From contig CAIOAT010000004.1 in NCBI GenBank assembly GCA_903856085.1, positions 20,722-84,721 of the forward strand: a stretch of DNA of 64,000 nucleotides. Reading direction: 5' to 3'. The DNA comes from Candidatus Omnitrophota bacterium. Its GTDB lineage: Bacteria > Omnitrophota > Omnitrophia > Omnitrophales > Aquincolibacteriaceae. The position numbers and the translations under genes are program-made. Below the pieces are notes generated by a model that had not been told where the DNA came from, searched no databases, and worked only from the letters and a program-made list of their open reading frames with translations. Below, piece by piece: positions 22,295 through 62,835 of the stretch. Numbering within the stretch: the stretch's first letter is position 1; each line of letters begins with the position of its first letter.

Positions 22295-22340
22295 TCCAGC
22301 ACGGGGAAGGAGTAATCTTTTCGTGGGCCTGAGGGATTTG
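22295..22340. repeat. GC-rich intergenic repeat family, copy E (ACGGGGAAGGAG..TCTTTTCGTGGG)
   Basis: Shares the 12-mer ACGGGGAAGGAG with copy A and TCTTTTCGT with copy B. Confidence 0.35.
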
Positions 22341-22431
22341 ACATGGCGCTACCGTTTTCAAGAGGCACCTTTAAATTGAAAACGAGGACAGCCATGATGA
22401 AACGGTTGTTTTTTAATTAAGGAGAATTAGG

Positions 22432-22758
22432 GTGGAGTCATCCATGAAAGAAGAGGTCGAGACAAATATTTCGGTGGATGTCTTTTCGGTATCCGCGGCG
22501 ATGGTCGGTGTTTGCCTGACCGTGATTCAGCTGATCCAGATGAACGGAACTCAGAGGGCCAACACGATTGTCGATGATATCCTAGCTCTTGATTCCATAG
22601 TGTTTATGATAGCCTGCGTATCTTCCTTTCTTGCCCTTAAAAGCAAAAGGCATTCCAAGAGGAAGAAAATATTGGAAAATATCGGCGACGGCTCTTTTCT
22701 GCTCGCTATTTCTACAATGGTTGTGGCGATCACGCTTGTGGTGTATACGCTCTTTTGA
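22432..22758 (+). CDS. hypothetical small membrane protein
   Basis: 108 aa with three hydrophobic segments. No motif recognised. Confidence 0.35.
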   Translation: MESSMKEEVETNISVDVFSVSAAMVGVCLTVIQLIQMNGTQRANTIVDDILALDSIVFMIACVSSFLALKSKRHSKRKKILENIGDGSFLLAISTMVVAITLVVYTLF

Positions 22759-22873
22759 CCGCGTTTTCGCCCAGGTCATCCTTTATGGAAAAAGTTTGGA
22801 CTGGCATGATTGCTTTTATATTTTTAGGTAGATGGATTATGAAGGGATCCTTTGATGAAACCGGAGAAATGCG

Positions 22874-23239
22874 ATGAAAAAAAACATTTTCGTGATCGAT
22901 GACGATCCTCTCGCTCTCAAAATGATCATGGCGGTTCTAAAAGCAGAAGGCCATGAGGTCCAGGCGTTTTCGGAATTTGAAAGCCTGCTTCAGGCGCTCC
23001 AACGGTCGCTTCCGGATCTTGTTATGACCGACGTCGTGATGCCGAAGGTTTCCGGGTTTGACGTTTGCCGCAGAATCAAAGAAATTCAGCCCCATTCGCC
23101 GCAGGTGATCGTCATGACCGGGAAACTCGACGCGGTTGACCCCATTTTGGCCCGCAAGATGGGGGCCGATGATTTCGTAGTGAAGACCTCGGATATGACC
23201 GTTCTGGTCCAAGCGGTGCGAAAGATCTTCTCAGAGTAA
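22874..23239 (+). CDS. single-domain response regulator (receiver)
   Basis: VIDDDPLAL, phospho-acceptor D in MTDVVMPKVSGFD, K in VVKTSD. Confidence 0.7.
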   Translation: MKKNIFVIDDDPLALKMIMAVLKAEGHEVQAFSEFESLLQALQRSLPDLVMTDVVMPKVSGFDVCRRIKEIQPHSPQVIVMTGKLDAVDPILARKMGADDFVVKTSDMTVLVQAVRKIFSE

Positions 23240-23392
23240 GATTCCTCGTGAGAGGCAGATCTCTTGCTTTCGCCTGTTTCTGAAGCCAATGGACCCAAGT
23301 TTCTTGTAGACGAAAAGGTCCTGACTCGGGAACAGCTGGGCCAGGCCCTTTAGAAGCGGGATGAATAGAAATCTTGCATTATTGCAGGGCAT

Positions 23393-23432
23393 AAAAAAAG
23401 CCGGCTCCCCGCGAAGGGAACCGGCTTTTTTT
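23393..23432. terminator. bidirectional rho-independent terminator (A-run, GCCGGCTCCC..GGGAACCGGC, T-run)
   Basis: Hairpin flanked by an A-run and a T-run, between the convergent receiver (+) and groEL (-) genes. Confidence 0.55.
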
Positions 23433-23449
23433 GCTAGAGCGTTCTTTAA

Positions 23450-25078
23450 TTACTCGATGCTGCCCGAGTAGTTCGAGGATTTTTTCTTATCCTCTTCTTT
23501 TTTCTCTTTGGGTTTATCCGCGATCACGCACTCGGTGGTGAGAATGAGGCCCGCGATACTGCAGGCGTTCTCCACCGCGATACGGACGACCTTGGCCGGG
23601 TCAATGACCTTGGCCTTAACAAGGTCCTCAAATTCGCAGGTCAGCGCGTTGAATCCGAAGTCCCCTTTGTTTTCAAGGATCTTCTTCACGACGACTGATC
23701 CGTCGGCCCCGGCATTGTGGGCGATCTTACGGGCCGGTTCCTGTAGCGCCCGGCGAACGATCTGAACGCCTGTGGCTTCATCGCCCGACGCTTTAACGTC
23801 ATCAAGCGATGCGATGGAGCGCAGAAGTGCCACGCCGCCGCCTGGGACGATGCCTTCGTCGATGGCCGCGCGGGTTGCATGAAGCGCGTCCTCGATGCGG
23901 GCTTTCATTTCTTTCATTTCCACTTCCGTTGCTGCGCCGACCTTCACAACGGCCACGCCGCCGGAAAGTTTCGCAAGTCGTTCCTGGAGCTTTTCTTTAT
24001 CGTAATCCGAGTCCGACCGTTCGATCTCGGCTTTGATCTGATCACAACGGGACTTGATATCTTTCTGGGTTCCCGCGCTTCCCACGATCGTGGTGTTATC
24101 CTTATCGATCACCACGCGCTGGGCTGTGCCGAGCATTTCGAGGTCGACATTTTCGAGTTTTACGCCGAGATCTTCTGAAATGAACTTGCCCTTGGTGATG
24201 ATCGCAATATCTTCCATCAAGGCTTTGCGCCGGTCCCCGAATCCGGGAGCCTTTACGGCTGCGATCTGGAGCACGCCGCGGATCTTGTTGACCACGAGTG
24301 TCGCAAGAGCTTCGCCTTCAATGTCTTCCGAGATGATGAGCAGGGGCTTGCCGAGGCGCGCCACTTTCTCAAGCACTGGGACGAGGTCCTTTACGGCACT
24401 GACTTTTTTCTCGTAAAGAAGGATGTAAGGTTCTTTCAAGACCACTTCCATCCGCTCAGCGTCGGTCACAAAATAAGGCGACAAGTAGCCGCGGTCGAAT
24501 TGCATCCCCTCAACCACGTCCAGTTCGGTCTTGAGACCTTTCGCTTCTTCGACCGTGATCACGCCTTCTTTGCCGACCTTTTCTAGAGCATCCGCCAGAA
24601 GCTGACCGATCGATTGGTCGTTATTGGCGCTGATGGCGCCGACGGCCGTGATGTCCTCTTTGCCTTTGACGGCCTTGGACATTTTCTTGATCGTGTCGAC
24701 GATCTTCGCGGAGGCTCTATCAATACCGCGCTTCAAGGCCATAGGATTGGCACCGGCGGTGACGTTCTTTAAACCCTCGGAAACGATAGCCTGAGCCAGG
24801 ACCGTCGCGGTCGTGGTTCCGTCTCCAGCGTTATCCGAAGTCTTTTCCGCGACTTCCCGGACCATTTGGGCGCCCATATTCTCATACGGGTCCTTCAGGT
24901 CGATCTCTTTGGCGACCGTGACACCGTCTTTGGTCACAAGGGGTGCGCCGAATTTCTTATCGATCACAACATTGCGGCCGCGGGGACCGAGCGTGACGCT
25001 GACAGCCCTTGCGAGGATGTCGACGCCGCGTTTGATCCGCTGGCGCGCTTCTTCCGAGTAGGAAATCAATTTTGCCAT
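23450..25078 (-). CDS. groEL: chaperonin GroEL paralogue (distal copy; lacks the GGM tail and ends in a Lys/Glu-rich tail)
   Basis: Full-length Cpn60: [17 protein letters not shown], etc. C-terminus is [21 protein letters not shown] instead of GGM repeats. Confidence 0.9.
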
Positions 25079-25082
25079 GGGG

Positions 25083-25376
25083 TTACTCCTTCTCGTAAAC
25101 GGCGAGAATTTCGCTCTCTTTGACGATCTTGTGCTTGACGCCGTCGATCATGAGATCGTCGCCGGAATATTTTCCAAACAGCACGCGATCGCCTTTTTTA
25201 ACTTCAATGGCCTGGATCTTGCCGGATTCGAGCACTTTGCCCGCGCCGACTGCGATGACCTTGCCCTCAGTCTTTTCTTCTTTTGCGGTGTCCGGGAGGA
25301 TGATGCCGCCCTTGGTTTTTGCTTCCGCTTCAAGAACTTCTACCAGCACTCGGTCTGCTAACGGTCTGACTTTCAT
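25083..25376 (-). CDS. groES: co-chaperonin GroES
   Basis: 97-aa Cpn10 ([12 protein letters not shown], mobile loop, GDRVLFGKY). 4-nt gap to the downstream groEL. Confidence 0.9.
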
Positions 25377-25424
25377 TTTATTTCTCCTTCGTTAATTTTT
25401 GACGTTTAGTTTAATTTCGAATCT

Positions 25425-27113
<1,689 letters not shown>

Positions 27114-29921: not shown

Positions 29922-30614
29922 TTACAGGCAAGGGCCGGCATGTTTTTTATCCTTCAGCTTTTCTTCTGCTTCGGAACTTCTCAAGTAGAACGGTAAAAAT
30001 TCTTTGGGCCGTCGCAACTTTTTTAGAAGCGGGTTCTTTGTTTCAAATAATGCGATCAAAGTGGCAGCCCGTGGAATCCAGTTCTTTTCAGGTACGATGG
30101 AAAGATTTTTGGTAGCGAGTTTAGGGATCCCGTCACCGGCGATCCAACTCTCTCCGGGAAGTCCGGAGATCAAGTTGTCGATCGGTATGACGCGGGAGGG
30201 TCCTCTTGAGCGCCACCTTTTTTCATGATAAAGATACGAACGCGCATAAAGTTTACCACGCCTTGCGTCCAAACATACCGTGAGATTCGTATATCCCTGG
30301 GGTCTAATCCCGGCCGCGATCACGTCGAGGGAAAAAGCGCCATAGCAAGATTTGGAGCGGACTGCGAGGAAACCCTTGAGCGTGGCGAAACCGATGCGCA
30401 GTCCCGTGAAAGACCCAGGCCCTCGGCTGATCAGGAAGGCGTCAATATCCCCGATCTTCAGCCTTTCTTTTCTGAGGAGCCGGTCGATTGCCGGGAGAAG
30501 GTTCTCAGCGTGTTTCATGTAGCCTTTGATGGTCGCGTGGCGGAGCTTGGCCCCGCTCTTCTTGATCGCAACGCTCAGGACGGGACTGGAGGTCTCAATC
30601 GCTAGGAGATTCAT
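29922..30614 (-). CDS. tsaB: tRNA threonylcarbamoyladenosine biosynthesis protein TsaB (YeaZ)
   Basis: MNLLAIETSS..LSVAI start typical of TsaB. GPGSFTGLRIG motif. The ORF track extends to 30659, but the conserved start is the internal ATG at 30614. Confidence 0.7.
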   Translation of the reverse strand: MNLLAIETSSPVLSVAIKKSGAKLRHATIKGYMKHAENLLPAIDRLLRKERLKIGDIDAFLISRGPGSFTGLRIGFATLKGFLAVRSKSCYGAFSLDVIAAGIRPQGYTNLTVCLDARRGKLYARSYLYHEKRWRSRGPSRVIPIDNLISGLPGESWIAGDGIPKLATKNLSIVPEKNWIPRAATLIALFETKNPLLKKLRRPKEFLPFYLRSSEAEEKLKDKKHAGPCL

Positions 30615-30666: not shown

Positions 30667-30735
30667 TAGGCAAAATGCGGCGGGAAACGGGGAAGGAGAA
30701 TGGTGAACTAAAATTTTTTCGTTATCCGTTAGCAG
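30667..30735. repeat. GC-rich intergenic repeat family, copy A (CGGGAAACGGGGAAGGAG..TTCGTTATCCGTTAGC)
   Basis: Its 16-mer TTCGTTATCCGTTAGC differs at one position from copy B (TTCGTTACCCGTTAGC). Confidence 0.4.
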
Positions 30736-30755
30736 TTTTCCAGAAAAGCATTGAC

Positions 30756-30772
30756 ATACCCCCATGGGGTAT
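30756..30772. promoter_or_regulatory. CsoR-type operator: perfect inverted repeat ATACCCC-CAT-GGGGTAT overlapping a TTGACA -35 box
   Basis: 7-3-7 GC-rich palindrome immediately downstream of TTGACA (30751-30756), about 15 nt upstream of csoR. Resembles the B. subtilis CsoR copZA operator (TACCC..GGGTA). Confidence 0.55.
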
Positions 30773-30786
30773 GATAGGATTGGCGT

Positions 30787-31083
30787 ATGAAGAAAAAGAC
30801 GGGTATGAGCAAGGGAATGGACCATCAGGATAAGCTGGTATCGCTTCGGAGGATCGAAGGTCAGATCCGTGGCATCCACAAGATGATCGAGGACCGGCGT
30901 TACTGTGTGGACATCCTCTACGCCACCGGTGCAGCCATCGGGGCGCTCAGGAACGTGGAATCGAAGATCCTCAAGGACCATTTGAACGCCTGCGTGAAGA
31001 CCGCTTTTACCGGGAAGTCTCTAGCGGAAAAAAACCGGAAGATCCAGGAGATTTACGAGTTGCTCGAGCGTATTAAGAAATGA
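30787..31083 (+). CDS. csoR: CsoR/RcnR/FrmR family metal-sensing transcriptional repressor
   Basis: DUF156 core LRRIEGQIRGIHKMIEDRRYCVDILYATGAAIGAL with the conserved Cys and His positions. The start may be an internal ATG. Confidence 0.7.
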   Translation: MKKKTGMSKGMDHQDKLVSLRRIEGQIRGIHKMIEDRRYCVDILYATGAAIGALRNVESKILKDHLNACVKTAFTGKSLAEKNRKIQEIYELLERIKK

Positions 31084-31137
31084 ATTTTTAATAGATGCCG
31101 GGCGGGGTAGAATGAAATCTCAAAGGAGGGCCACGCG

Positions 31138-32436
31138 ATGAAAAGGATGTTCATAGCGATTTTGATTCTGGCAACTCCACTCTTTTTAATCGGTTCCGCT
31201 CGGGCGGAAGAGAAGCCTCAAATCCCCCCAATCTTGCGCTTACAAGACCTGATCCAGCAAGCCCTGGGAAAAAATCCCGAGATCGTGGCCGCGAAGGCCG
31301 AATGGCTTGCCTCCAAGAAAGCCATCATGGCGTCGTGGGCCCTTCCGGATCCCGTGGGCGGTTATGACATCATGGGCCCCATGGTTGAAACGATGACGGG
31401 CCCTCAAAAGAACCGTTTTGGGATCTCCCAAGAAGTTCCTTTTCCAGCTAAGCTTTGGGAAAAACGAAAGGCCGCTCAAGCGGAATCCGAAGCCACACGT
31501 GCACGCTTTGCTGCCATGGAAAGAGATATCACCAACAAACTCACCCAGCTTTACTATCAGCTTTACTATATTGATGCCTCCCTGGATACCCTTGCGGAAA
31601 TTAAAGAACTCCTGAAAAAAATCGAAGGGGTCGCGCAAGCGCGTTATTCCAATCTGTCGGGAAGCCAACGCGATGTTGCCAAAGCTGAGGCGGAATTTTC
31701 CATGAATCTGGAAAAATTTTATACGCTCGAACAGCAGCGTGAAAGCGTGGCCGCGCAGATGAATGCCCTCCTGGATCAGGATCCCATGACCGTGATTGGA
31801 AAGGCGACACTCCCGGGCAAGCCTGCCGTGAGCCGTTCGCTCGTTGAGCTGATCAATCTGGCGGTCCAGAACCGGGAAGAGATCAAGGCGGCGGAGGCCG
31901 TAGCCTCCCAAACACATTACGCAAAAAGATTAGCGCAATTGGCCTATCTCCCGGATGTGAACGTCGGGTTTGAATACACCCGAGTCGGGAAAGGTGCGAC
32001 CACGGAAGCCAATAACGGTAGGGACACTTGGATGTTCCCCTTGAGATTCAATATTCCGCTTTGGCAAAACCGCATTATTCCGGAGATCCAGGAAGCCCGG
32101 AAGCTTGAAGAAGTGCAAAATGCAAAATTGATCGCTGCGAAGAACCAGACTTTTTTTGAAGTGAAAGATGCTTACTACCGGTTCCAGTCTGCCGCCAAGA
32201 TCGCTGACCTTTATGCGGCGGCCATTATCCCGCAGGCGAAACTGGCACTTTCTGCGGACCAGGCCGGGTATGAGGGGAGCAAGGCTGGTTTTCTCGATCT
32301 TCTCGACAGTGAACGCGTGTATCTCAACGCCAAACTTTCTGGGATTCAATTTCAAGCCGAAACTCTCAAAGCCTACGCGGATCTCCTTTGGGCGACGGGT
32401 CTTGATCTCCAAGATATGGAAGGACAAAGGAAATGA
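31138..32436 (+). CDS. cusC: TolC-family outer membrane efflux protein (CusC/CzcC-like)
   Basis: Signal peptide. Two OEP repeats with characteristic heptads (LYYQLYYIDASLDTL, LLDSERVYLNAK). Confidence 0.75.
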   Translation: MKRMFIAILILATPLFLIGSARAEEKPQIPPILRLQDLIQQALGKNPEIVAAKAEWLASKKAIMASWALPDPVGGYDIMGPMVETMTGPQKNRFGISQEVPFPAKLWEKRKAAQAESEATRARFAAMERDITNKLTQLYYQLYYIDASLDTLAEIKELLKKIEGVAQARYSNLSGSQRDVAKAEAEFSMNLEKFYTLEQQRESVAAQMNALLDQDPMTVIGKATLPGKPAVSRSLVELINLAVQNREEIKAAEAVASQTHYAKRLAQLAYLPDVNVGFEYTRVGKGATTEANNGRDTWMFPLRFNIPLWQNRIIPEIQEARKLEEVQNAKLIAAKNQTFFEVKDAYYRFQSAAKIADLYAAAIIPQAKLALSADQAGYEGSKAGFLDLLDSERVYLNAKLSGIQFQAETLKAYADLLWATGLDLQDMEGQRK

Positions 32437-33734
32437 TCAAAATGAATCGCTTTGTATCTCTCGGCGTTTTTTTAATCATTGGGATCGTAGCGAGCGCCAT
32501 CGCGCTTCGATCCGCGGAGCATCTTTCGATCCATGCGGGAAAGCATGCCGAAAAAGCGGTTTATTATTGCCCGATGCATCCCAACTATACTTCCGACCGG
32601 CCCGGCAACTGTCCGATCTGTAACATGACGCTTGTGAAGCGCGAAAGAAAAGAAGAATCAGGATCTATGCCGGGAATGTCCATGCCCGAGGGATCTACTG
32701 TCGTGCCGGGATCCGCGCCCAAAGTCTTCACGGTCGCACAGCTCATGGCCATGAAACCGGGTGAGATCTGTTTGCTTCATAAATGCAAGATGGGGCAATG
32801 CATGCTCGCCATGACGCCGGAATTCGCCCGGCTCGGGAAATGCCCGCACTGCGGGGAAGACCTCGGCGTCATTGTGAAAGAAGCTCTCCCGCAGGGTTAC
32901 GCGCAGGTCCAACTCGGCGCCGAGAAACAGCAGGTGATCGGCGTCAAGACCGCGCTTGTTCAGAAAATGGGGCTCGCCAAAACGATCCGTGTTTCCGGTC
33001 GCATCGCCTACGATCCGGAACTTTATCAAGCCGAAGAAGAATACCTTCAAGCCGCGCAGGCTTTTGAGAAAGCCGGGACTGCAGATCCGGAGATCAAAGA
33101 GCAGGCCGCCAAGCTGGTGGATTCTGCGAAGATCAAGCTGCGTCTTTTGGGTCTGAGCGATTCGATCGTGCAGGAGATCGAGAAGGCGGGGAAGCCGGAC
33201 CGTTCACTTCTTTATTCCGACGCGGGAGGCAAAGTTTGGCTTTATGCGCCGATTTATGAATATGAAATGCCTTTTGTCCATGTCGGAGATACGGTCGAAG
33301 TCGAGGTTCCGGCTGTTTCTGACCAAAAATTTCACGGAATCCTTCGAGCGCTGGATTCGGTGGTGGATCCGGTGACGCGGTCCATTCGCGTTCGCGCGCA
33401 GCTTGAGAATCCGGATGGTATTTTGAAACCTGAAATGTATGTGAATGTGATGCTTCAAACAAACCTCGGGGAACAGATCGCCGTGCCGGAGGAAGCCGTT
33501 TTCGCAACAGGGGAAAAGAACATCGTCTTTGTGGTAAAGGAAAACAATGTTTTCGAACCTCGGGAAGTCGGGTTGGGCGCGAAGGCGGACCGTTTTTATC
33601 AGATCAAGAGCGGACTTCAGGAAGGCGAAAAGGTCGTCACCAGCGGAAATTTCCTGATCGATTCCGAAAGCCGTCTTAAATCCGCTCTGGAGGGAGCTGG
33701 GAGTAGCGGAGGCGGGGAGCACAGCCATGGCTAA
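32433..33734 (+). CDS. cusB: efflux RND periplasmic adaptor subunit with N-terminal heavy-metal binding domain (CusB-like)
   Basis: YYCPMHPNY..CPICNM metal-binding motif followed by HlyD-like beta-barrel/lipoyl regions. Overlaps the cusC stop by 4 nt. Confidence 0.8.
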   Translation: MIKMNRFVSLGVFLIIGIVASAIALRSAEHLSIHAGKHAEKAVYYCPMHPNYTSDRPGNCPICNMTLVKRERKEESGSMPGMSMPEGSTVVPGSAPKVFTVAQLMAMKPGEICLLHKCKMGQCMLAMTPEFARLGKCPHCGEDLGVIVKEALPQGYAQVQLGAEKQQVIGVKTALVQKMGLAKTIRVSGRIAYDPELYQAEEEYLQAAQAFEKAGTADPEIKEQAAKLVDSAKIKLRLLGLSDSIVQEIEKAGKPDRSLLYSDAGGKVWLYAPIYEYEMPFVHVGDTVEVEVPAVSDQKFHGILRALDSVVDPVTRSIRVRAQLENPDGILKPEMYVNVMLQTNLGEQIAVPEEAVFATGEKNIVFVVKENNVFEPREVGLGAKADRFYQIKSGLQEGEKVVTSGNFLIDSESRLKSALEGAGSSGGGEHSHG

Positions 33735-33808
33735 CATTCAAAAATTAATAGAAGCTAGGACAGTTCCTGCCAACCCTTCTGGAAATAAAATGAAAGGCAA
33801 GGGCCTGC

Positions 33809-37165: not shown

Positions 37166-37494
37166 AAAAGCTGTTAGCTGTCGTGTTGTTGGTGATGTTT
37201 CTCATTCCGCTTGCGGTCTTGCCGGTATTTGCGAATGAAAAGGTTGTGAATGTTGGGAACAAAATTTGTCCGGTTTCCGGCGATCCTGTGTCTGGGACAA
37301 GTTTTGTCGAGTATCAAGGCAAGCGGTACGGTCTTTGCTGCCCGATGTGCAAAGCGCCATTCCTGAAAGATCCGGTCAAATATATCGCCCAGATGGAAGC
37401 AAAGGAAAAAGCATCCGCTTCTGCGACGGCGGTAGTTCCGGTCAATTCCAAGTCTGAGAAAATGGAAAAAGGTATGGAGCAGGGGAGTCTTTAA
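37162..37494 (+). CDS. YHS-domain (TRASH-like) metal-binding protein, secreted
   Basis: Signal peptide, then CPVSG..YQGKRYGLCCPMCK matching the YHS pattern C.v.G...y.G.tY.FC...C. Start overlaps the cusA stop (ATGA). Confidence 0.5.
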   Translation: MKKLLAVVLLVMFLIPLAVLPVFANEKVVNVGNKICPVSGDPVSGTSFVEYQGKRYGLCCPMCKAPFLKDPVKYIAQMEAKEKASASATAVVPVNSKSEKMEKGMEQGSL

Positions 37495-38594: not shown

Positions 38595-38597
38595 AAG

Positions 38598-38653
38598 AGG
38601 GGAACGGGGAACGCGGAAGTTCTTTCGTTACCCGTTAGCCGTTTCCCGTTCCA
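38598..38653. repeat. GC-rich intergenic repeat family, copy B (GGGGAACGGGGAACGCGGAAGTTCTTTCGTTACCCGTTAGCCGTTTCCCGTTCC), forms a long imperfect hairpin
   Basis: Arms GGAACGGGGAACG and CGTTTCCCGTTCC are near-complementary. Lies after the cus-operon stop and overlaps the 3' end of the GT2 gene. Confidence 0.4.
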
Positions 38654-39485
38654 CGAGCTTTTGTACCTCGTCAGCTTCTTTTTCTTTCCCCCGTTTTAAC
38701 GCGCCTTCGATATAGATCCTTGCTTTCTCATCAAGCGTTTTCCGTGCGGCCGTGGTCTGCTCTGGAGTGAGGATGTTCTGTGAAAGAATTTTGGCAAGCG
38801 ACTGGATGCGGAAGCGATCCATGGCAGGGAATTCGCGGGAGCGCTGGTCGGCATGCCCGCCATATTTAAAAATGTAAGGTGTTTCGATCAGGCCGATGGG
38901 GTAGCGCGAAGCGATCCGGAGCCAGAGGTCATAATCCTCGCAGGCCGGAAGCGATTCATCGAAAAGGCCGACCGCGTCGAAAAGTTTCCGGTGCATCATG
39001 ACTGCGGACGGGCTTACGACGCAAAGAGGCAGGCATTTCTCAAAGATCCATCCGCCGAATTTTTTGTGTTTTTTCATCGGATTTACACGCTGGCCGTTCC
39101 GGATCCAGATCTCTTCTGTTTGGCAGATCAGGTAATCCGGATTCTTCTCAAAAAATTTCAACTGAGCCGTAAGTTTTCCCGGTTTCCATTCGTCATCCGA
39201 ATCGAGGAACGCGATCCATTCGCCCTTGGCGTGTTTGATCCCGAGGTTGCGCGCGGCGGAGGGGCCGCGGTTTTCCTGATGGAAAATCCGGGCCATGGGC
39301 CATGGGCCACGGGAATCGTGGTGCGTGGTACTTGGGACGAGGATTTTTTGCATGTCATCTGTGGACCCATCATCCACGATGATAAGTTCAAATTCTGTGC
39401 CTTTTTGCGCAAGGACGGAATTAATCGCTCGCGGAAGGACCGCGGAGCGATTGTAAGTCGGGATGATGACGCTGATAAGAGACAT
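38628..39485 (-). CDS. glycosyltransferase family 2
   Basis: ISVIIPTYNR, DDGSTDD, FLDSDDEW (DxD) motifs. Confidence 0.8.
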   Translation of the reverse strand: MSLISVIIPTYNRSAVLPRAINSVLAQKGTEFELIIVDDGSTDDMQKILVPSTTHHDSRGPWPMARIFHQENRGPSAARNLGIKHAKGEWIAFLDSDDEWKPGKLTAQLKFFEKNPDYLICQTEEIWIRNGQRVNPMKKHKKFGGWIFEKCLPLCVVSPSAVMMHRKLFDAVGLFDESLPACEDYDLWLRIASRYPIGLIETPYIFKYGGHADQRSREFPAMDRFRIQSLAKILSQNILTPEQTTAARKTLDEKARIYIEGALKRGKEKEADEVQKLVERETANG

Positions 39486-44434: not shown

Positions 44435-44638
44435 AGCGAAAGCGCCAGATTTCCCTGCCTCAATAAAAATCAAAATAACCATTCTAGTGCCATTTTGGAT
44501 CATTTAAAGCTATTAATTGCTATGTATTGCTGTTATTATGGCTATTAACTTATATAAACAGTGTTATTTATTAACAAGTTTATAAGAAGCTATTGACTAC
44601 AGCCGATCTGTAGAGTACTTTTCTATTGGAGAGACATA

Positions 44639-48500: not shown

Positions 48501-51500
48501 CACTGGTGGTTTGTTAGGTCATAGCGGGGGCTCTTCGATCAGCAATTCGTATGCTGTCGGAAGCGTAAACGGCGTTTGGTATGTGGGTGGTTTAATCGGA
48601 TATGACGGGGGAGGGAACGCCTTTGCCAACAACTGGTGGTGGAAAAGCGCCGGACACAACGCCGGACTGAATGATACCGGGACTTCCGGTGATCTTCCTA
48701 ATACCCAGATTGCCACAGAAGAAACACTGTCTAATTTTTATTCTCCCGCTCACGCGGTGTACGCAATCGGTGCGGCAGGGCAATGGGATATTTTCACTCC
48801 CATTTGGGATATGTATGCGAATGAATTTCCAAGGTTGCATTTTGAAGGTCACAACGGCAACATCTATTCTGTGTGGAGCGGCGCTTCATCCGTCTGGTCT
48901 GCCGCCTCGAATTGGGTGGGGAATGCCTTGCCGGGTGACAATATTTTTATCAGTCATCGTACCTTTGATCCCATTGTGGATGCCGATGTTGCTTCTTCAA
49001 TCGTCATTATCAACTCTGGAGCAACGCTTGATCTTGGAAGTTTCAGTCTTTCCGGCGTTGTTACGAATTTGGGTACCGTAAAACTTGTCGGGGACAATAT
49101 CTCGGTATCGGCGATCACGGAAGGTACGGTCAATTATTACGGTACAGGCACCTATGCCGGCCTTAAAGCAGGTTATGACTATATGAACCTCATTTTTTCC
49201 GGCGTGGGCGGGACCTATACGATCAACAACTCCCTTACCACTTCAGGAGATATGACGATTGAGGCAGGCACCATCAATCAGAATGCCGGACTTTCCATCG
49301 GCGGCAATTTTTCCCAATCGGGTGGCACGCTTAATCAAAACGCCGGGCTTTCTGTCTTCGGAGGTTTCTTCAAATCCGGCGGCATATTCAATAATAATGC
49401 AGCGATTACTTTGGCCATGGATTTTCTCTCGCTGGTAGGAGGGACGTTCAACCAGAACGTGGCCATGATTCTTGCGAACTACAACCAAAGCGGCGGCGCC
49501 TTCAATCAAAATAATAATCTTTTCATCGGCGGTGATTATATCCAGACAGGTGGGACATTCATGGATGCTGCGCCGCTGGCGCATGCTTTCACCGTTGAAG
49601 GTAGTTTCTCACTGCCGTACGGGACGAACGCGTTCCGCCGTTACACGGGAGCGGGCACGACGAACGATCCTTTCGTGATCCGGAATCTTTACGATCTTCA
49701 GGGCCTGAAGGGGAATCTTACCTCGAATTTCAAATTAAACACGAGTCTGGATGCATCATCGATTTCCGGATGGAATGCCGACGCCGGTTTTGATCCGATC
49801 GGGGACGCGACACACGCATTCACGGGAACCTTGAGTGGTTTTGGGAAAGTGATCTCGAACCTCACGATGCATTGGGAGGGGAACGATTACGTGGGTCTTT
49901 TCGGGAATATCGGTGTCGGTGGTTTGGTGAGCGAACTTGCGCTCGAAAAAGTGAGCTCGTATGGCCGTCATTATGTCGGAGGTCTGGCGGGTCTTAATGA
50001 AGGCACGCTTTCGAATGTTTACACGACGGGATCTTTTACGGTCAGCGGTGTGAATTTTGTTGGAGGTCTTGTGGGAGGGAACACGGGCTCGATCGCGAAC
50101 GCTTATTCCAGTGCTCGCGTGGTTGGGACAGATACCGTGGGCGGTTTGGCAGGTTTCAATACCGGAACGATCCAAAAGACTTACGCAATGGGTCAAGTGA
50201 CGGGTTCTTCCAATACCGGCGGCCTTGTCGGTACCGGCACCGGAACTGTGGCGAATTCTTTTTGGAGTCAGAAAATGACCGGGCAAGCGACAAGCGCCGG
50301 AGGGACCGCGGGTAAAGTGATCGGTATCACGACCAATGACGAGGGCTATGCGGTTCCGGATCCCGAAGATGTCGCGGATCCGGCTTCCGATATGATGAGC
50401 TCCGGCACGTTCTCGGGATGGGATTTCGGGAGCACCTGGGTGATGGACGAAGGCGGGTCTTTCCCCCACTTCCAGTTCCGTTTTCCTGAGGGTGTGCGCG
50501 GGGTTTGGGGAGTTGTCTATAACACGGAGGGTGCTACCACGGAGGCCGGCAGGACTGTTGATCTTTACGTAAACACAAATTCTTTGGACACGACCGGTCT
50601 TGGGACCCAGGTGGATACCACGAGGAGCACCGCGGACGGGATGTATTATTTTGTGATGGGAGCGAATGATGTTCAGGCCCAAGATTGGGTGATCGGCAAG
50701 CTGAACGGTGGGGACAATTTTACGGGGAACACCCGGATGCCCGCCGAAACGGGGAGCATCAAAGAACTGGATATTTGGGGGACCCTGGCGCGGATGATTC
50801 CCCATCCGAAAGAGCCGCCGCCGATTCGCATTCCCGCGAATGAGTCCTTGCAAGAGGCCCAGGGGGAGGTTAACCGGAGCCTTCAAAGTCTGATGAACAA
50901 CACCGGCCAAATAGCCTCGCTTGAAGGAGTCTGGGGCAAGGCGTCGGATGTTCAGATCCAGGATCAAACGCTATCCGTTTCTGGGATAGAGATGACTATT
51001 TCTGAAAACGCTTGGATTTCTTTTTATGACGAATCCGCGCCGGGGATTGAACCGGTTCCGACGTTCACTTTGACCCATGTTGGGACGGAAACCGCGGGGC
51101 TCCAGTCCGGGAGTACGAAATCGGTGATGCTTGAGATCGCTGAAAATCTCGTGCAATCTCCGAAAGGACGTGAGGCCTCCGGGAGCGCGGAGTCCTCCTC
51201 TGTTTCGTCAGCAGGTGGACAGGCAACCGATGCGACCGATTCTGCCAATGCCGCGGCTCAAGCAAGTGATGAGTCAACGGGCAGCGATGCGGCGGCTTCG
51301 CCTGCGACTGAAGCCGCGGATGAAAATGCCGATGCGGCTGGCCAGAAAGCTTTGGCGGCGGACGAACAGACGGACGAAAACGCAGAAGCTGTCGACCAGG
51401 CAGTTTCTGCAAACGATGAGCAAGCGACAGAGAGTCAAACTTCTCCGGAAAAAAACGCGGCAAGCTCCGCGGATCGTGGCGCAAAGAGCAGCTCCAACTT

Positions 51501-52341
51501 TTTTGGTGAGGAAGCGAAAAAATTCCTGACGGATGTTCGAGTGATCGATGGAGTGGTGTATGTGGTGGATAGCGCCAGCGAGGTATCCCTTTTGACTCCC
51601 GGAGAATCGGTGCGTGTACTTTTCAAGGAGCAGTCGGGTCTTGTGAAAGCCAGGGGGACGGCTTCTGTCGCGGGAGTTCTAGATCCAATACCCATGCCTG
51701 TGAAGGCTGATCCGTTGCCGGTACTGGCCGTGAAAACGGATCCGCCGCCGTTGATGGCTCTAAAGGCGGACCCATCGGATGCTCGTATCAAAGCCGATTT
51801 TTCGACAGTGAGCGTGAAAACCAACCCGCCGGAAACGGTTGAGAAGGTCGATTTGCCTGTGAAGGCTGCCAATGTCCCGCCGATGTTCACGCCGCAGGAG
51901 CCCAAGGATATTGCAAAGCTCGGGCTGTTTGCGGTTCAGAGAACGACAAATAGCGGAGTGCGGTACGGAACTCTGAAGAATCCTGGGAAGAACGTATTTG
52001 TGAAATGTCCGGGCGGGGAATGGCAGGCGGCGAAGGAGGGCATGATCATTCTTCCGGGAGATGAGGTCCGGACAGCGGCTCAAAGCTCCGTGGAGGTGTT
52101 GCTGGATGATGGCAAGGTCGGGCAGCTTAAGATCCAGGAAGGGAGTTTATTCCGCATCAATAAAGCCGAGACGAACCCCGCGACCGAAGGCAAAACAACG
52201 CTCCTGGATCTCGCGATCGGGAAGATGTTGATCAAGGTCGGGAAGCTCAAAGGGGACTCGAAGTTTGAGGTCCGCACTCCGACTGCGCTCACCGGCGTCC
52301 GTGGTACCGTTTTCGAGGTGACCGTGAAGGAAAAAGTTTAA
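45412..52341 (+). CDS. giant surface/exoprotein body: filamentous beta-helix, more than 30 GLUG-motif repeats, beta-helix NQN repeats, acidic linker, VKxDP repeats and a C-terminal FecR-like domain. Continuous with 44639..45403 apart from a -1 frameshift.
   Basis: Recurring about 27-aa unit NSYATGxVxGxxxVGGLVGxNxGxI (GLUG motif). GGTxNQNAGLSIGGNF repeats. D/E/A-rich stretch near 51180-51500. VKADPLPVLAVKTDPPPLMALKADP repeats. C-terminal LPGDEVRT..VLLDDG..RTPTALTGVRGTVFEVTV matches the FecR domain pattern. Confidence 0.7.
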   Translation: MSIGVDEATANKLGLADQIKNSGTISAQGGKVVLNAKAVDGLFEKAINIAPGANATAVVKSDDGVIEFVAQGNILNQGTVQAKRGEIKMEATGDIETRGSLVASRFSEKAAAFKISGLYMVGISSHNNLDNAITYTGNTTVSGTIEDVDDIIINAGVTITLAGDTSFVADSDQNYSLTGHNTGAFTMGAGSSIDGTAGHHYNLSISASKVSHLYNIANVGSLTLGASRTGSNPSYVMHNAISTASDFTLNKGTATLAGGDLTVGGIFTVGEGAIFNETTDMAGANAYVAHFGSDDIVGTYRNVSNGTAAMRVASVSDLQAVRDVLDQNYVQTGDISGVGDFTNYIIGDGDTPFTGTFNGNGYTIDSLTLNTGADNVGLFGYTSGATIQNVGLIHVNVTGVSNVGGLVGHNSASSTIDNSYVEGDVVANGGDYGGGLVGDNEGTITNSYTSGSVSGGYYNIGGLAGGNYGGAIDSSHSSSSVSGQHSTGGLVGSNEGGSITHSYATGDVYGENYATGGLVGQNGYLVSGSIDNSYATGDVTSSGSQVGGLVGYSWGTTRGSISNSYATGDVSADGAVGGLVGVLNNEDLLNSYATGNVTGGSDVGGLVGLSLLSFVENSYAKGTVIGTDRVGGLVGQNEGTISKSYATANVNETGGGSTEGAGGLVGFNEGIISESYATGSVLGNYIAGGLVGWNSSTISNSYATGTVGGSQYAGGLVGVNDNLSQIDNSYATGLVNNGVGGANIGGFIGLSLSDAYAGNFWNQETTQQGYGTGAGDVDGITGKTTLPMEDVTTFTNAGWDFNGLWKINAGEAPHLIWQDMTYSTDFIGGTSAMPMQIHNVNELQFMKYELSSSFKLVQDIDASSTVGWNGGLGFATVGDINNYFTGTFDGQGHTITGLTINRSTGYPNNFSIPEYSDIGLFGRTEGAKISNVGLLDVNITGDLFVGGLVGWNGTGSSVTNSYVTGSVEGYYDQIGGLVGRNFQGAISNSYSKATVRGHWWWVGGLAGISDGGSITNSYAAGDVYDDVGGGTGGLLGHSGGSSISNSYAVGSVNGVWYVGGLIGYDGGGNAFANNWWWKSAGHNAGLNDTGTSGDLPNTQIATEETLSNFYSPAHAVYAIGAAGQWDIFTPIWDMYANEFPRLHFEGHNGNIYSVWSGASSVWSAASNWVGNALPGDNIFISHRTFDPIVDADVASSIVIINSGATLDLGSFSLSGVVTNLGTVKLVGDNISVSAITEGTVNYYGTGTYAGLKAGYDYMNLIFSGVGGTYTINNSLTTSGDMTIEAGTINQNAGLSIGGNFSQSGGTLNQNAGLSVFGGFFKSGGIFNNNAAITLAMDFLSLVGGTFNQNVAMILANYNQSGGAFNQNNNLFIGGDYIQTGGTFMDAAPLAHAFTVEGSFSLPYGTNAFRRYTGAGTTNDPFVIRNLYDLQGLKGNLTSNFKLNTSLDASSISGWNADAGFDPIGDATHAFTGTLSGFGKVISNLTMHWEGNDYVGLFGNIGVGGLVSELALEKVSSYGRHYVGGLAGLNEGTLSNVYTTGSFTVSGVNFVGGLVGGNTGSIANAYSSARVVGTDTVGGLAGFNTGTIQKTYAMGQVTGSSNTGGLVGTGTGTVANSFWSQKMTGQATSAGGTAGKVIGITTNDEGYAVPDPEDVADPASDMMSSGTFSGWDFGSTWVMDEGGSFPHFQFRFPEGVRGVWGVVYNTEGATTEAGRTVDLYVNTNSLDTTGLGTQVDTTRSTADGMYYFVMGANDVQAQDWVIGKLNGGDNFTGNTRMPAETGSIKELDIWGTLARMIPHPKEPPPIRIPANESLQEAQGEVNRSLQSLMNNTGQIASLEGVWGKASDVQIQDQTLSVSGIEMTISENAWISFYDESAPGIEPVPTFTLTHVGTETAGLQSGSTKSVMLEIAENLVQSPKGREASGSAESSSVSSAGGQATDATDSANAAAQASDESTGSDAAASPATEAADENADAAGQKALAADEQTDENAEAVDQAVSANDEQATESQTSPEKNAASSADRGAKSSSNFFGEEAKKFLTDVRVIDGVVYVVDSASEVSLLTPGESVRVLFKEQSGLVKARGTASVAGVLDPIPMPVKADPLPVLAVKTDPPPLMALKADPSDARIKADFSTVSVKTNPPETVEKVDLPVKAANVPPMFTPQEPKDIAKLGLFAVQRTTNSGVRYGTLKNPGKNVFVKCPGGEWQAAKEGMIILPGDEVRTAAQSSVEVLLDDGKVGQLKIQEGSLFRINKAETNPATEGKTTLLDLAIGKMLIKVGKLKGDSKFEVRTPTALTGVRGTVFEVTVKEKV

Positions 52342-52406
52342 AAACGGGTAACGGGAAACGTTACGCGTAAAGGCTTTTTACTCTCCGTTCGGTGTTTCCC
52401 GTTTCC
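52342..52406. repeat. GC-rich intergenic repeat family, copy C (AAACGGGTAACGGGAAACG..GTGTTTCCCGTTTCC)
   Basis: Contains CGTTACCCGTT and CGTTTCCCGTT modules (reverse and forward). Immediately after the giant gene stop. Hairpin-forming. Confidence 0.4.
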
Positions 52407-52469
52407 TGAGGCCCTGGCGTCCTGTCGCTTGGGCTTGCAAGCTTTACATAGATTGATTAGTATCTTCGC

Positions 52470-53604: not shown

Positions 53605-53648
53605 CCAAAAAAGAGACAGGCATTCAATGACGGCCTGTCCTTTTTTAT
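53605..53648. terminator. bidirectional rho-independent terminator (A-run, GACAGGC..GCCTGTC, T-run)
   Basis: 7-bp perfect stem flanked by AAAAAA and CTTTTTTA, between the convergent histidine kinase (+) and PP2C (-) genes. Confidence 0.55.
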
Positions 53649-58674: not shown

Positions 58675-58689
58675 AAATCACCTCACGCG

Positions 58690-59039: not shown

Positions 59040-59423
59040 ATGGGACAAAAAAGATCAATACTGCTTGTGGATGATGATGTGGATTCCAGTCAGATGGTGA
59101 AGATGATCCTTGAAAACACAGGACTTTACGCGGTGAGCATTTGTAATCGCGGGTGCGAGGCCTTTAAGATCATTCAGGATACGCGACCCGAACTGGTGCT
59201 TCTCGATGTTATGATGCCGGGTGCGGATGGTCCGGACATTGCGGAGAAAATCCAGCAAGACAAATCACTTGCGCTTACGCGGGTTGCTTTCATGACGTCG
59301 CTCGTTTCCCCGGCAGAAGCCCGTGAGAATTCGGTGATCGGGGGGCACCCTTTCATCTCCAAACCGGTCAGTCACGAAGTGCTTCTCAAGAGGGTCAAAG
59401 GATTTTTCGAAATTGGGAAGTGA
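59040..59423 (+). CDS. single-domain response regulator (receiver)
   Basis: LLVDDDVDS, D in LLDVMMPGADG, K in ISKP. Start chosen at the ATG after RBS aaggggg. The ORF-track start at 59013 is possible. Confidence 0.65.
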   Translation: MGQKRSILLVDDDVDSSQMVKMILENTGLYAVSICNRGCEAFKIIQDTRPELVLLDVMMPGADGPDIAEKIQQDKSLALTRVAFMTSLVSPAEARENSVIGGHPFISKPVSHEVLLKRVKGFFEIGK

Positions 59424-60417: not shown

Positions 60418-60482
60418 AGCGCAGTCTCCACACGGGTCCATCATCGCTTTGCGGTCATCGGGGCAGTCCGCAAAAAAAATGG

Positions 60483-60938
60483 ATGACACTCGCGATACAA
60501 TCCGCCAAGGCGGGGATCCGGCGGTCAGAGGGGGGGCCCTTTGGGGCGGTGATCGTGTGTGGGAATCAACGGATTGCGATCGCGCATAACACCGTTCTTA
60601 AAGATCAAGACGCCACGTGTCACGCGGAGGTGAATGCCATCCGTCTTGCGTCCCGAAAACTTAAACGTTTCGATCTTTCGGATTGTAGGATCTATTCCAC
60701 CACCGAGCCATGTCCCATGTGTTTTTCTGCGATCCATTGGGCCCGGATCGCGATGGTGATCTTCGGGACGAGTATTGCGGATGTTCAAAAAAGAGGTTTC
60801 CATGAACTGTCCATCCCGAGCAAAAAAATGAAGCGTGAAGGCAAAAGCCCCGTCTCTCTTAGAGCCGGTTTTATGAAAAAAGAATGCCTGGCGTTACTTG
60901 CGGACTGGGACAGCCTGCCCCATAAAAAAACCTATTGA
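60483..60938 (+). CDS. guaD: guanine deaminase (CDA-fold, GuaD type)
   Basis: GGPFGAVIV, TCHAEV, EPCPMC zinc-binding motifs closely parallel B. subtilis GuaD. Start taken at MTLAIQ. The ORF-track start at 60414 overlaps the upstream gene by 4 nt. Confidence 0.6.
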   Translation: MTLAIQSAKAGIRRSEGGPFGAVIVCGNQRIAIAHNTVLKDQDATCHAEVNAIRLASRKLKRFDLSDCRIYSTTEPCPMCFSAIHWARIAMVIFGTSIADVQKRGFHELSIPSKKMKREGKSPVSLRAGFMKKECLALLADWDSLPHKKTY

Positions 60939-61007
60939 GCCACGCAGTCGACTTGTATCTTGCCGGCGTGAACCCATACACAACGAGAGCTTCAACGGAG
61001 TGAGGAT

Positions 61008-61928
61008 TTGATGAAGATTGTTATTGCTGGAGCCACAGGATTCATCGGGAGGGCGCTGACCGAAAAACTTTCCGCATCAGGTCATGAAGTCTTTGTCCTG
61101 ACGCGGGGCGTGCGGCAAAGGGTTCGCGAGAAGAACGGAAAAATTTTAGTTCCCTGGGATGGGAAGACTCCGGGGGATTGGGTCGCACAGCTTGACGGTG
61201 CGGATGCAGTGATTAATTTGGCGGGAGAGAATATCGCGTCAAAACGGTGGACGGCCGTGCGGAAACAGGAGATTCTTTCAAGCCGCGCGGAGACGACCCG
61301 ACTGATCGTGAACGCGATCGCTCAAGTGAAGAAAAAGCCGGAGATTTTGGTCAATGCCTCTGCGGTTGGATATTATGGAGATGTTCCTGAGGGGGTCTTG
61401 ACGGAGACGAGTGGTGCAGGGGATGGGTTTCTTTCGAAAACTTGCGGGCAATGGGAAACGGAGGCCCGTAAGGCGGAACTTTCCGGAACGCGCGTGGTTC
61501 TGGCCAGGCTCGGGCCCGTGCTCGGCGAAAAAGGCGGCATGCTTTCCAAAATGATTCCACCCTTCCGTTTTTTCATGGGGGCGCCGCTTGGCAGTGGACG
61601 GCAGTGGATTTCTTGGGTCCATCGCGACGATGTGACCGGGGCGTTTCTTTTTATGCTGGATCACGGAGATATCTCCGGCCCCGTCAATGTTACCGCCCCT
61701 GCTCCCGCGACCATGCAAGAATTTTGTTCTGCGTTGGCAAAAATCATGCGACGTCCATGCGGATTCCCCCTCCCGGGTTTTCTTCTCAAGATTTTGATGG
61801 GGGCGATGGCGGAGATCGTTCTTGCAAGTCAAAAGGCCCTGCCTGAAAAACTTCTGCGGGCGGGTTATCAATTCCGGTATTCGAGACTTCCCGAGGCGCT
61901 CGAGGCGATCCTGAAAAGAGGGAAATGA
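61008..61928 (+). CDS. TIGR01777/YfcH family NAD-dependent epimerase-like protein (DUF1731)
   Basis: IAGATGFIGRAL Rossmann motif. About 300 aa with YfcH-like conserved blocks (INLAGENIA, LGPVLG). Confidence 0.65.
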   Translation: MMKIVIAGATGFIGRALTEKLSASGHEVFVLTRGVRQRVREKNGKILVPWDGKTPGDWVAQLDGADAVINLAGENIASKRWTAVRKQEILSSRAETTRLIVNAIAQVKKKPEILVNASAVGYYGDVPEGVLTETSGAGDGFLSKTCGQWETEARKAELSGTRVVLARLGPVLGEKGGMLSKMIPPFRFFMGAPLGSGRQWISWVHRDDVTGAFLFMLDHGDISGPVNVTAPAPATMQEFCSALAKIMRRPCGFPLPGFLLKILMGAMAEIVLASQKALPEKLLRAGYQFRYSRLPEALEAILKRGK

Positions 61929-62009
61929 ATTATCAGTCGAACCCTAGTATTTTCATAAAAGGGCATGTATAATTCCCACAACTTTTATAAAAAATAATCA
62001 GAGAAAAAA

Positions 62010-62756
62010 ATGCCATTCAAATTCAATTTTTTTAAAAAGCAGCGGGCCGAGTTCAAGGACCCCATCCATTCTGTTTATCAGCCCATCGTGGATATCGCGA
62101 CCGGGGACGTGATCGGGTATGAGGCTTTGGCACGAGGCGAGAAAAAAATGCCCGCGGAGATGTTTCGTTCGGCCTACGAAAACGGGGCAGTGATCCCGTT
62201 CGATTTCCATTGTCTTGAATCTGCCATCAAGGTTCTTCCCGATCTGCAGGAAGGCCAGTACCTTTTCCTTAATATTGAACCGCTCACGCTCGAACAAGCT
62301 TTTTCAAGAGGGAAAGAGGGCGAAGAATTTTTAAAGGGACTGAAGGCTTACTCCAGCAAGGTCGTTTTTGAACTTACCGAGGGCGTGAAGAAGTCAGATT
62401 TCGCCTTCATCCAACGTGGCGTGGAATTTATCCGGGCTTTGGGCTATCGTTTCGCGCTGGATGACGTTGATGATATCAGCGTCAAGACCGCTCAGCTGGC
62501 ATCGCTCAGGCCGGATTTTCTGAAGATCGATCTCCAATTAGTGCAGGGGATCGCGAGCAATTATCTCAATCAGCAGATCGTTCGTGAGATGGTGCATTTA
62601 GGGCGCGTCAACGGCTCCGAGATGGTCGCTGAAGGCGTGGAACAGAAGTCGGATCTTGAGTTTATCCGCCATATGGGGATCCGTTATGGTCAGGGATTCT
62701 TTTTCGCCAAGCCCGCCAAGGAATTGATTCTTTCTCTCCAATTGTCGAAGGAATGA
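62010..62756 (+). CDS. stand-alone EAL domain protein (c-di-GMP phosphodiesterase family)
   Basis: YQPIVDIATGDVIGYEALAR, ELTE, LDDVDD (variant of DDFGTG), KID, AEGVE..GQGFFF. Confidence 0.7.
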   Translation: MPFKFNFFKKQRAEFKDPIHSVYQPIVDIATGDVIGYEALARGEKKMPAEMFRSAYENGAVIPFDFHCLESAIKVLPDLQEGQYLFLNIEPLTLEQAFSRGKEGEEFLKGLKAYSSKVVFELTEGVKKSDFAFIQRGVEFIRALGYRFALDDVDDISVKTAQLASLRPDFLKIDLQLVQGIASNYLNQQIVREMVHLGRVNGSEMVAEGVEQKSDLEFIRHMGIRYGQGFFFAKPAKELILSLQLSKE

Positions 62757-62804
62757 CCGGCGCATTCAGTCCTAATCCCAATCAATCGAAGCATTGCTGA
62801 GATC

Positions 62805-62835
62805 AGGGAAGTTCTTTCCGCTATTTAGGGGAAGG
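62805..62835. repeat. GC-rich intergenic repeat family, degenerate copy D (GGGAAGTTCTTTC..GGGGAAGG)
   Basis: Shares the 12-mer GGAAGTTCTTTC with copy B. Lies between the convergent EAL and PilZ genes. Confidence 0.3.

Follow-up and report, generated by a model that had tools for sequence, protein, structure and literature searches.

What are the short palindromes scattered among the genes of a Candidatus Omnitrophota genome, and what might they do there? We addressed this question in a 64-kb stretch of DNA from one such genome (the window, to which all coordinates refer unless a related locus is named). In this stretch, the original prediction had grouped five sites—A, B, C, D, and E (Table 1)—into a single dispersed family of GC-rich elements resembling repetitive extragenic palindromes (REPs), bacterial interspersed mosaic elements (BIMEs), or a miniature element. 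Three of the five, B, C, and D, very probably form a real family of heptad palindromes, in which both arms are arrays of 7-nt units—a periodicity that the prediction had not described. We read these elements as stem-loops at transcription-unit boundaries, derived from a 7-nt repeat, long resident at their loci and evolving in place, with a role that may be exerted on the RNA at the transcript 3' end; we give this reading an even chance of being correct.

A family of palindromes with 7-nt units

Is the family real, and which sites belong to it? An nhmmer profile that drew on 13 copies from other Omnitrophota genomes, and on none from the window, found exactly three matches in the window—C (47.7 bits, E = 4e-14), D (29.6 bits, E = 2e-8), and B (22.2 bits, E = 3e-6)—and the top profile score across 100 simulated windows was 8.2 bits. 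The proposed five-site family thus stands for B, C, and D (22-48 bits) and falls for A and E, which gave no profile match even at E <= 10. The sequence blocks cited for the grouping all lie where they had been reported: ACGGGGAAGGAG at 22301 and 30687, GGAAGTTCTTTC at 38615 and 62807, TTCGTTAYCCGTTAGC at 30718 and 38624, and CGTTTCCCGTT at 38640, on the opposite strand at 52350, and with one mismatch at 52393. Two matches to TTCGTTAYCCGTTAGC were reached in 0/100 shuffles, whereas the 12-mers shared by A and E are near chance (7/100 shuffles for A and 2/100 for E reach the observed counts, one mismatch allowed).

The elements follow a common plan: an imperfect palindrome of 55-65 nt in which an A/T-rich loop separates two arms, each of two to four tandem 7-nt units. 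Units of the 5' arm read NNNAACG with an invariant AACG core, mostly as GGGGAAC, GGGAAAC, or GGNTAAC, and the 3' arm is the complementary CGTT array; the arms of B, C, and D contain GGGGAAC, GGGAAAC, GGCTAAC, and GGGTAAC. Tandem Repeats Finder, run with no prior, called period-7 arrays at 38599-38618 (2.9 copies), 38626-38650 (3.6), and 52342-52360 (2.7), i.e., in each arm of C and, for D, in the left arm, and D was also called in the inverted-repeat listing of the window. The two-unit pattern ACGGGNAACGG, with one mismatch allowed, occurs 13 times in the window versus 4.8 expected, and 8 of the 13 lie inside B, C, and D. When 16 copies from about 10 genomes are aligned, the AACG core is invariant at 7-nt spacing while the spacers vary. 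The description of the sites as GC-rich fails, since GC content is 0.44 in B, 0.57 in C, and 0.49 in D versus 0.51 in the window as a whole.

RNA folding bears out the long imperfect hairpins that had been proposed, with predicted energies of -17 to -24 kcal/mol for C, D, and the + strand of B (z-scores just -1.1 to -1.9). Element C, which has a core stem of 13 bp, reaches -23.8 kcal/mol on the + strand and -20.3 on the - strand; D reaches -24.3 and -20.3, respectively, and B reaches -17.2 on the + strand and merely -7.6 on the other. The + strand thus gives the better fold in all three, and for C and D it is the sense strand of the upstream operon. RNAalifold, applied to the 16 non-orthologous copies, recovered a 6-bp AACGGG/CCCGTT core and nothing more because the arms slip by whole units; for the same reason, family membership was assessed with a sequence profile rather than a covariance model.

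How widely are such palindromes distributed? We scanned 185,579 species-representative genomes for AACGGGNAACG..GTTNCCCGTT and obtained at least 120 loci. Among the 120 matches listed, 47 have at least one arm of three or more heptads, as do 0.6% of random 39-nt windows. These 47 heptad-array loci belong to Gemmatimonadota (24), relatives of Xanthomonadales (6, in Frateuria, Fulvimonas, Rhodanobacter, and others), other Proteobacteria (4), Chloroflexota (3), Omnitrophota (2), Saprospiraceae (2), Planctomycetota (2), and Acidobacteriota (1), with three assigned to no group. Many of the listed copies are strikingly regular palindromes of the form (GGGGAAC)n ... (GTTCCCC)n or (GGGAAAC)n. Four genomes among the 120 matches listed were hit twice—three from Omnitrophota/Omnitrophica and one whose copies align with those three—and their copies are most like those of the window, with irregular units such as CGTTACCCGTTAGCCGTT. 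Searching all 1.74 Mb of collected loci with the profile gave 63 distinct elements (E < 1e-6) at 55 loci from several phyla, several loci carrying two or three; the window holds 3 copies in 64 kb and its relative L248 at least 4 in 21 kb. The dispersed family of extragenic imperfect palindromes thus exists as proposed, with many copies in other genomes and significant similarity to the profile. A phage origin was considered and rejected, as a scan of viral contigs returned 39 loci, mostly one conserved phage gene and otherwise ordinary perfect hairpins, and no family.

Position at gene ends and across species

Where do the elements sit relative to genes? A qualifying gene stop lies within -25 to +70 nt of 46 of the 63 elements (73%), compared with 13.4% of random placements in the same loci. 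The stop-to-element distance has a median of 4.5 nt and is typically 0-10 nt, the element sometimes overlapping the last codons. This test used open reading frames (ORFs) ending near each element and, in high-GC loci, demanded high third-position GC before an ORF was accepted. With cruder gene calls, a set of 48 pattern-selected heptad hairpins divided into 17 in tandem, 9 in convergent, and 1 in divergent contexts, 3 at a locus edge, and 18 classed as genic, most of which actually lie just past the stop of an ORF with high third-position GC. A divergent context thus accounts for 1 of the 27 hairpins with an assignable intergenic context; C and D fit the 3'-end rule, and B is an exception. Where just one side of an element holds a gene end (42 elements), the sense-strand RNA has the more stable predicted fold, by a mean of 2.1 kcal/mol over the antisense (27 versus 15 elements, Wilcoxon p = 0.003).

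In the window, C begins 7 nt past the stop of an ArsP_1 permease gene (37494-38594, +), which closes a metal-efflux operon (RND/YHS/ArsP_1) under csoR control. The right arm of C covers the final ~8 codons of a convergent GT2 gene (38628-39485, -), an overlap that had been correctly noted; in the sense direction of GT2, a partial U-tract, TCTTTTAGATTTTATT, comes after the element. Element D begins 4 nt past the stop of a 2309-aa FecR/Glug gene (45412-52341, +) and 62 nt upstream of the start of a histidine-kinase gene (52470), ahead of the kinase promoter; two T follow it on the sense side, with no U-tract. The earlier statement that the sites are intergenic or at gene 3' ends therefore describes C and D well, and B insofar as it is intergenic, although B is at no 3' end: it lies upstream of two promoter-like sites and of a palindrome that precedes csoR. 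Immediately 5' of the csoR-like gene, this perfect palindrome, ATACCCCCATGGGGTAT (30756-30772), overlaps the spacer and -10 of one promoter-like site (TTGACA at 30751, TAGGAT ending at 30780). It is conserved in four related loci (L164, L166, L247, and L248), and we take it to resemble a CsoR operator.

Do the elements keep their positions over evolutionary time? We compared the window with six related loci of 12-21 kb each, fetched via GT2 homologues. (More than 100 such homologues exist at 64-82% identity; where the organism is stated, it is always Omnitrophota or Omnitrophica.) The gene order GT2 | ArsP_1-YHS-...-CsoR | TsaB-Alr is kept in L164, L166, L247, and L248, which rules out the idea that B and C are halves of one hairpin split by an inserted metal-resistance island (30740-38597). 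At site C, the GT2/ArsP_1 junction, a hairpin is present in 7/7 species. Element D is colinear with an element of L248 (4375-4441), together with the conserved kinase promoter and start. Site B holds heptad arrays in L247 and L248 and none in L164 and L166 (3/5 including the window); in L247 and L248, two site-B arrays flank the tsaB promoter. Because the flanking GT2 protein is just 73-80% identical between species that share the C and D positions, the elements appear to be long resident rather than recently inserted.

What changes at a site that stays in place? When site C is aligned across species, its AACG and CGTT cores recur unchanged every 7 nt and three spacer positions vary; compared with the other sequences, L247 and L249 have insertions of exactly 7 columns. 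Compensatory changes affect 4/17 pairs; paired cells amount to 85.7%, versus 79.6% in shuffles (4/500 shuffles reach the observed value), and to ~40% with the partners slid. The hairpin arm encodes the variable C-terminal tail of GT2 (..VERETANG*, ..VERLTLNGKR*, ..ATVNAQR..). Within the species, contigs 99.9-100% identical to the window are present in several metagenomes, and four of them (L001-L004) showed no variation in heptad number. In L165, GT2 and ArsP_1 are now separated by two small genes, and these two genes have each kept an element of their own. The slot equivalent to D in L165 is filled by a different hairpin, of GTACWTR units, followed by TGTTTTTT, i.e., a canonical terminator.

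In L248, the D-equivalent element directly follows a scramblase gene, so the two-partner-secretion-like genes of the window would have been inserted upstream of a pre-existing hairpin. The segment concerned, ~7.9 kb at 44435-52341, consists of a gene with a two-partner-secretion (TPS) domain (44639-45589) and that for the 2309-aa FecR/Glug protein, and its left edge is AT-rich with a 10-nt repeat (44509-44548). In L165 and L248, the scramblase gene is followed by the hairpin and the kinase gene with no such segment in between, and from these comparisons the segment is probably an inserted two-partner-secretion-like module.

Are heptad hairpins confined to gene ends, and to the AACG unit? One of a different unit type lies in frame within GT2 (Table 1), its letters reading CCACGCA CCACGAT .. 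CGTGGCC CATGGCC CATGGCC; Tandem Repeats Finder calls GGGCCAT x3.4 there (39290-39313). All close GT2 orthologues have a heptad-armed hairpin in the same loop, with a unit type that varies by genome, and the loop is absent in the distant orthologues P0111, P0114, P0117, and P0120. In L247 and L248, the internal hairpin is of the GCGCAACGGTCAACG type, the same as the 3'-end element of that gene, and in L247, the internal and 3'-end arms are identical at 22/22 bases. Units of GCGCAAC type recur at B, at C, inside GT2, and at other unlinked sites of L247 and L248, whereas those here are of GGGGAAC/GGNTAAC type. Such sharing of unit types between unlinked sites hints, at the level of sequence, at homogenisation between copies within a genome.

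Other unit types occur in similar positions. Hairpins 3' of genes in related Omnitrophota are built from GTACWTR (L165, ~2850-2960, reverse strand) or GTACGGR (L094, 5396-5454), and in distant metagenome loci GGAATGC, CCAAAGG, and other units follow the GT2 stop (L221, L225, L233, L244, and L245). A metagenome scan with a GT2 alignment returned mostly distant relatives (52-67% identity) without AACG elements, and across 717 kb of related metagenome loci, the strict AACG pattern was found in L165 alone. Separately, a heptad array in the window, AGTCTCC GGTCTCT AGTCTGT AGTCTCA (18690-18735), lies directly 5' of the ATG (18736) of a glycosyl hydrolase family 1 gene and is preceded by CCACGGGCCATGGG, which resembles the intragenic GT2 units.

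Possible function and competing explanations

How might such elements act? Once transcribed, an element would fold into a long stem-loop that forms or protects the transcript 3' end, either as a non-canonical terminator or as a barrier to 3'-5' exonucleases, and the next transcription unit would thereby be insulated. The elements would stay at the same loci for long periods and change there, whole 7-nt units being gained or lost by replication slippage and substitutions being matched on the other arm, via either selection on pairing or templated correction (template switching) between arms. We infer a role at the RNA level from the placement at gene ends, the sense folding bias, the canonical terminator that replaces D in L165, and the separate copy retained by each gene after the C junction was split. 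Classical bidirectional intrinsic terminators, each with a perfect GC-rich stem, an A-run before it, and a T-run after it, also exist in the window (23393-23432, 15572-15609, 2061-2100, and ~53606-53648), and their coexistence marks the heptad elements as a separate kind of object, in line with the distinction drawn in the original prediction. Rfam at gathering thresholds gave no matches in the window, and no tRNAs were found there.

Several points weigh against this role. There is no U-tract enrichment after the elements, the mean number of T in the 12 nt after the stem being 3.24 on the sense strand versus 3.76 on the antisense. Thus, the combination of stop-adjacent placement and better sense folding describes 3'-end hairpins with a slight RNA-level asymmetry and not canonical U-tract terminators. 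Purified mycobacterial RNA polymerase has been reported not to terminate at hairpins without a U-tract (PMC3993855), which makes a pure intrinsic-terminator role doubtful. The folding z-scores of the window copies against shuffles are modest, and the gene calls in the fetched high-GC loci are heuristic and crude. Element B lies between the divergent starts of tsaB (29922-30614, -) and csoR (30787-31083, +), so it is expected in neither mRNA. In-frame heptad hairpins occur inside the GT2 coding sequence, where a terminator would do harm, which argues for a mutational process acting independently of function. Finally, templated repair alone can keep the arms paired without selection.

Could the elements be mobile? 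A non-autonomous element similar to REPs, to their hairpin-forming doublets (REPINs), or to miniature inverted-repeat transposable elements, copied by a trans-acting enzyme such as a REP-associated tyrosine transposase (RAYT, a Y1 transposase) encoded elsewhere in the genome, would find gene 3' ends merely tolerant sites. It would fit the dispersal of palindromes that share sequence at non-homologous loci of one genome (B and C have a 16-mer and the left arm in common), the long identical stretches between genomes (e.g., TTTCGTTCAACGTTCCCCGTT in L094 and L119), and the occurrence of both orientations relative to genes. It would likewise fit the change of heptad type at sites between species, the 22-nt arm common to the internal and 3' GT2 hairpins of L247, and the GT2-internal hairpin, which looks inserted, being absent from distant orthologues. 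However, C, D, and in part B occupy positions that are orthologous between species, and neither Y1_Tnp nor any other transposase domain was found in the ~50 window ORFs or the gene tables of the six related loci, which together represent ~2% of a genome. The 16-copy alignment shows CGGG..AACG and no GTAG-like 5' tetranucleotide, no flanking direct repeats (target-site duplications) were seen, and the density of 3 copies per 64 kb is low. We therefore consider the REP/BIME or miniature-element reading of the original prediction unlikely.

Might the elements have no function at all? On this view, 7-nt replication slippage and template switching between arms would enlarge any hairpin in a tolerated place, and mutational bias alone would account for the shared unit. 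In many prokaryotes, heptamers outnumber every other class of long simple sequence repeats, and slippage of the polymerase has been put forward to explain this (PMC4679880, PMC4692102). The exact 7-nt indels between orthologues, the variety of heptad types at similar sites (GTACWTR in L165, GTACGGR in L094, GGAATGC, CCAAAGG, and others), and the in-frame hairpins tolerated in GT2 all agree with such a by-product. We nonetheless regard it as improbable: the AACG core is invariant at 7-nt spacing in 16 copies from about 10 genomes despite variable spacers, the sense strand folds better, the elements persist tightly at stop codons over long divergence, and few copies lie between divergent genes.

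Another possibility, that heptad palindromes are actively maintained in several phyla by an unrecognised sequence-specific system, seems unlikely to us. Were it true, the conserved positions, the largely genome-specific dialects and their switching, and the in-frame copies would together require either a mechanism that copies or homogenises the elements or a binding factor that co-evolves with them. Candidates would include a hairpin-targeted transposase, gene conversion between hairpins, and a protein that reads AACG every 7 nt, and simple slippage at independent terminators would not yield the concerted pattern.

In another proposal, an AACG/CGTT core every 7 bp, whether in duplex DNA, hairpin DNA, or RNA, makes the element a binding array that would recruit, for example, a nucleoid-organising, termination, or RNA-binding factor. 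The invariant cores, with 3-nt spacers that vary and compensate, are as expected for such an array, as are the genome-specific dialects (GCGCAAC type in L247 and L248 versus GGGGAAC type here). Element B lies between divergent promoters, where a DNA-level role alone makes sense, and arrays flank the tsaB promoter in L247 and L248. However, the same architecture occurs in many phyla with other units. Moreover, AACGGG is not over-represented outside hairpins (22 and 16 per strand in the 64-kb window versus ~16 estimated from composition), and we judge the proposal quite improbable. The same counts led us to reject a DNA-uptake sequence.

The weakest alternative is a G-quadruplex (G4) or i-motif repeat, as proposed for Xanthomonas GGGAATC and Nostoc GGGGAYT: heptameric G-rich repeats of this kind form G4 in vitro (PMC4692102) and regular relatives in Gemmatimonadota and relatives of Xanthomonadales (e.g., L089, L050, L064, and L136) have at least four G-tracts with 3-nt loops, but the window copies have at most two runs of three or more G per strand and no canonical G4 pattern, the units of Omnitrophota copies are irregular, and the complementary arm competes for pairing, so a G4 is very unlikely and the sequence of the window copies excludes it there.

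Table 1. Elements B, C, and D and the other stem-loops considered in the window
Feature	Position	Strand	Description
Element C (best copy)	38601..38652	.	left arm 38598-38618, GGGGAAC x2.9; loop GGAAGTTCTTT; right arm 38624-38653, CGTTACC-type x3.6
Element D	52345..52408	.	left arm AACGGGT AACGGGA AACG, 52342-52361; right arm GTTTCCCGTTTCC, 52394-52406; inner CGTT..CCGTTCGG pairing
Element B (degenerate copy)	30676..30734	.	left arm GGGAAACGGGGAAGGAG, 30682-30698; long A/T-rich loop; right arm TTCGTTATCCGTTAGC, 30718-30733
In-frame heptad hairpin in GT2	39288..39328	-	different unit type (CCACGNN / CCATGGN); GT2 variable loop after the DDGSTD motif; not a member of the AACG family
Site A	22295-22340		small unrelated stem-loop downstream of a DEAD-box helicase gene
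Site E	62805-62835		small unrelated stem-loop between convergent EAL and PilZ genes; -15.3 kcal/mol, z = -2.6

Elsewhere in the window (23450-27092, - strand), a Cpn10/GroES gene (25083-25376) sits between two Cpn60/GroEL paralogues (23450-25078 and 25425-27092). The second GroEL gene carries at its 3' end a 9/27-nt repeat (25433-25487), which may specify a C-terminal tail rich in Gly and Met.

Relation to known repeats and significance

How do these palindromes relate to repeats already described? The closest known class is that of the Xanthomonas and Nostoc heptads (Rehm et al. 2015), which likewise have tandem 7-nt units with a G-tract, are dispersed, lie near upstream stops, and are rare between divergent ORFs. 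In Xanthomonas, GGGAATC heptads occupy 186 and 183 loci in the two strains studied, and 70-75 inverted pairs are able to form stem-loops (PMC4692102). About 90% of the Xanthomonas and Nostoc heptads (the latter being GGGGAYT, the classical short tandemly repeated repetitive sequences, or STRRs) are intergenic, at a mean of 28 nt from the upstream ORF and with depletion between divergent ORFs. Related species keep the locus but differ in the length and sequence of the repeat, and no function has been assigned (PMC4692102).

The unit here, NNNAACG, is unlike that of either Xanthomonas (GGGAATC / GGGANTN) or Nostoc (GGGGA(C/T)T). The window copies differ further from this class in being always inverted pairs, with two to four irregular units per arm and no canonical G4, in an Omnitrophota host. 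Regular versions (GGGGAAC/GGGAAAC) are present in Gemmatimonadota, Chloroflexota, Rhodanobacteraceae and related groups, among others, and four or more intact G-tracts were seen only in regular relatives such as L089 and L136. Four tandem two-unit strings of GGGGAAC/GGGAAAC, taken on either strand, had no occurrence in the bacterial literature searched, and we found no literature on such repeats in Omnitrophota or Gemmatimonadota. Judged by its sequence, the family is an extension of the Xanthomonas/Nostoc heptad class, with the same architecture and placement, a new unit, new host phyla, and no G4 potential in the window copies.

Two other kinds of element invite comparison. The REP, BIME, and REPIN elements of Proteobacteria are also short, imperfect extragenic palindromes, found mostly after gene 3' ends and in either orientation. 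They stabilise upstream mRNA and sometimes aid termination. Unlike REPs and REPINs, the elements described here have no GTAG-type 5' motif and no RAYT nearby in the sequence examined, their arms are 7-nt periodic, and their positions are conserved between species. With canonical intrinsic terminators, they share a stable stem-loop right after a stop, which at C would serve convergent genes both ways, and a canonical terminator replaces D in L165. The heptad elements differ from such terminators in their long, imperfect, periodic stems and in the lack of U-tract enrichment.

What do these elements add to the biology of heptameric repeats? Among the long simple repeats of many bacterial genomes, heptamers are the commonest, yet their function has been open since the STRRs and the Xanthomonas repeats were described. 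Copies that are unable to form G-quadruplexes argue that the hairpin, and not the G4, is the common denominator. Conserved positions with 7-nt indels provide a natural series in which slippage and compensation can be followed. The elements also explain the variable C-terminal tails of GT2 and the insertion in its loop. For annotation, they mark the ends of transcription units where U-tract terminators are not the sole signal.

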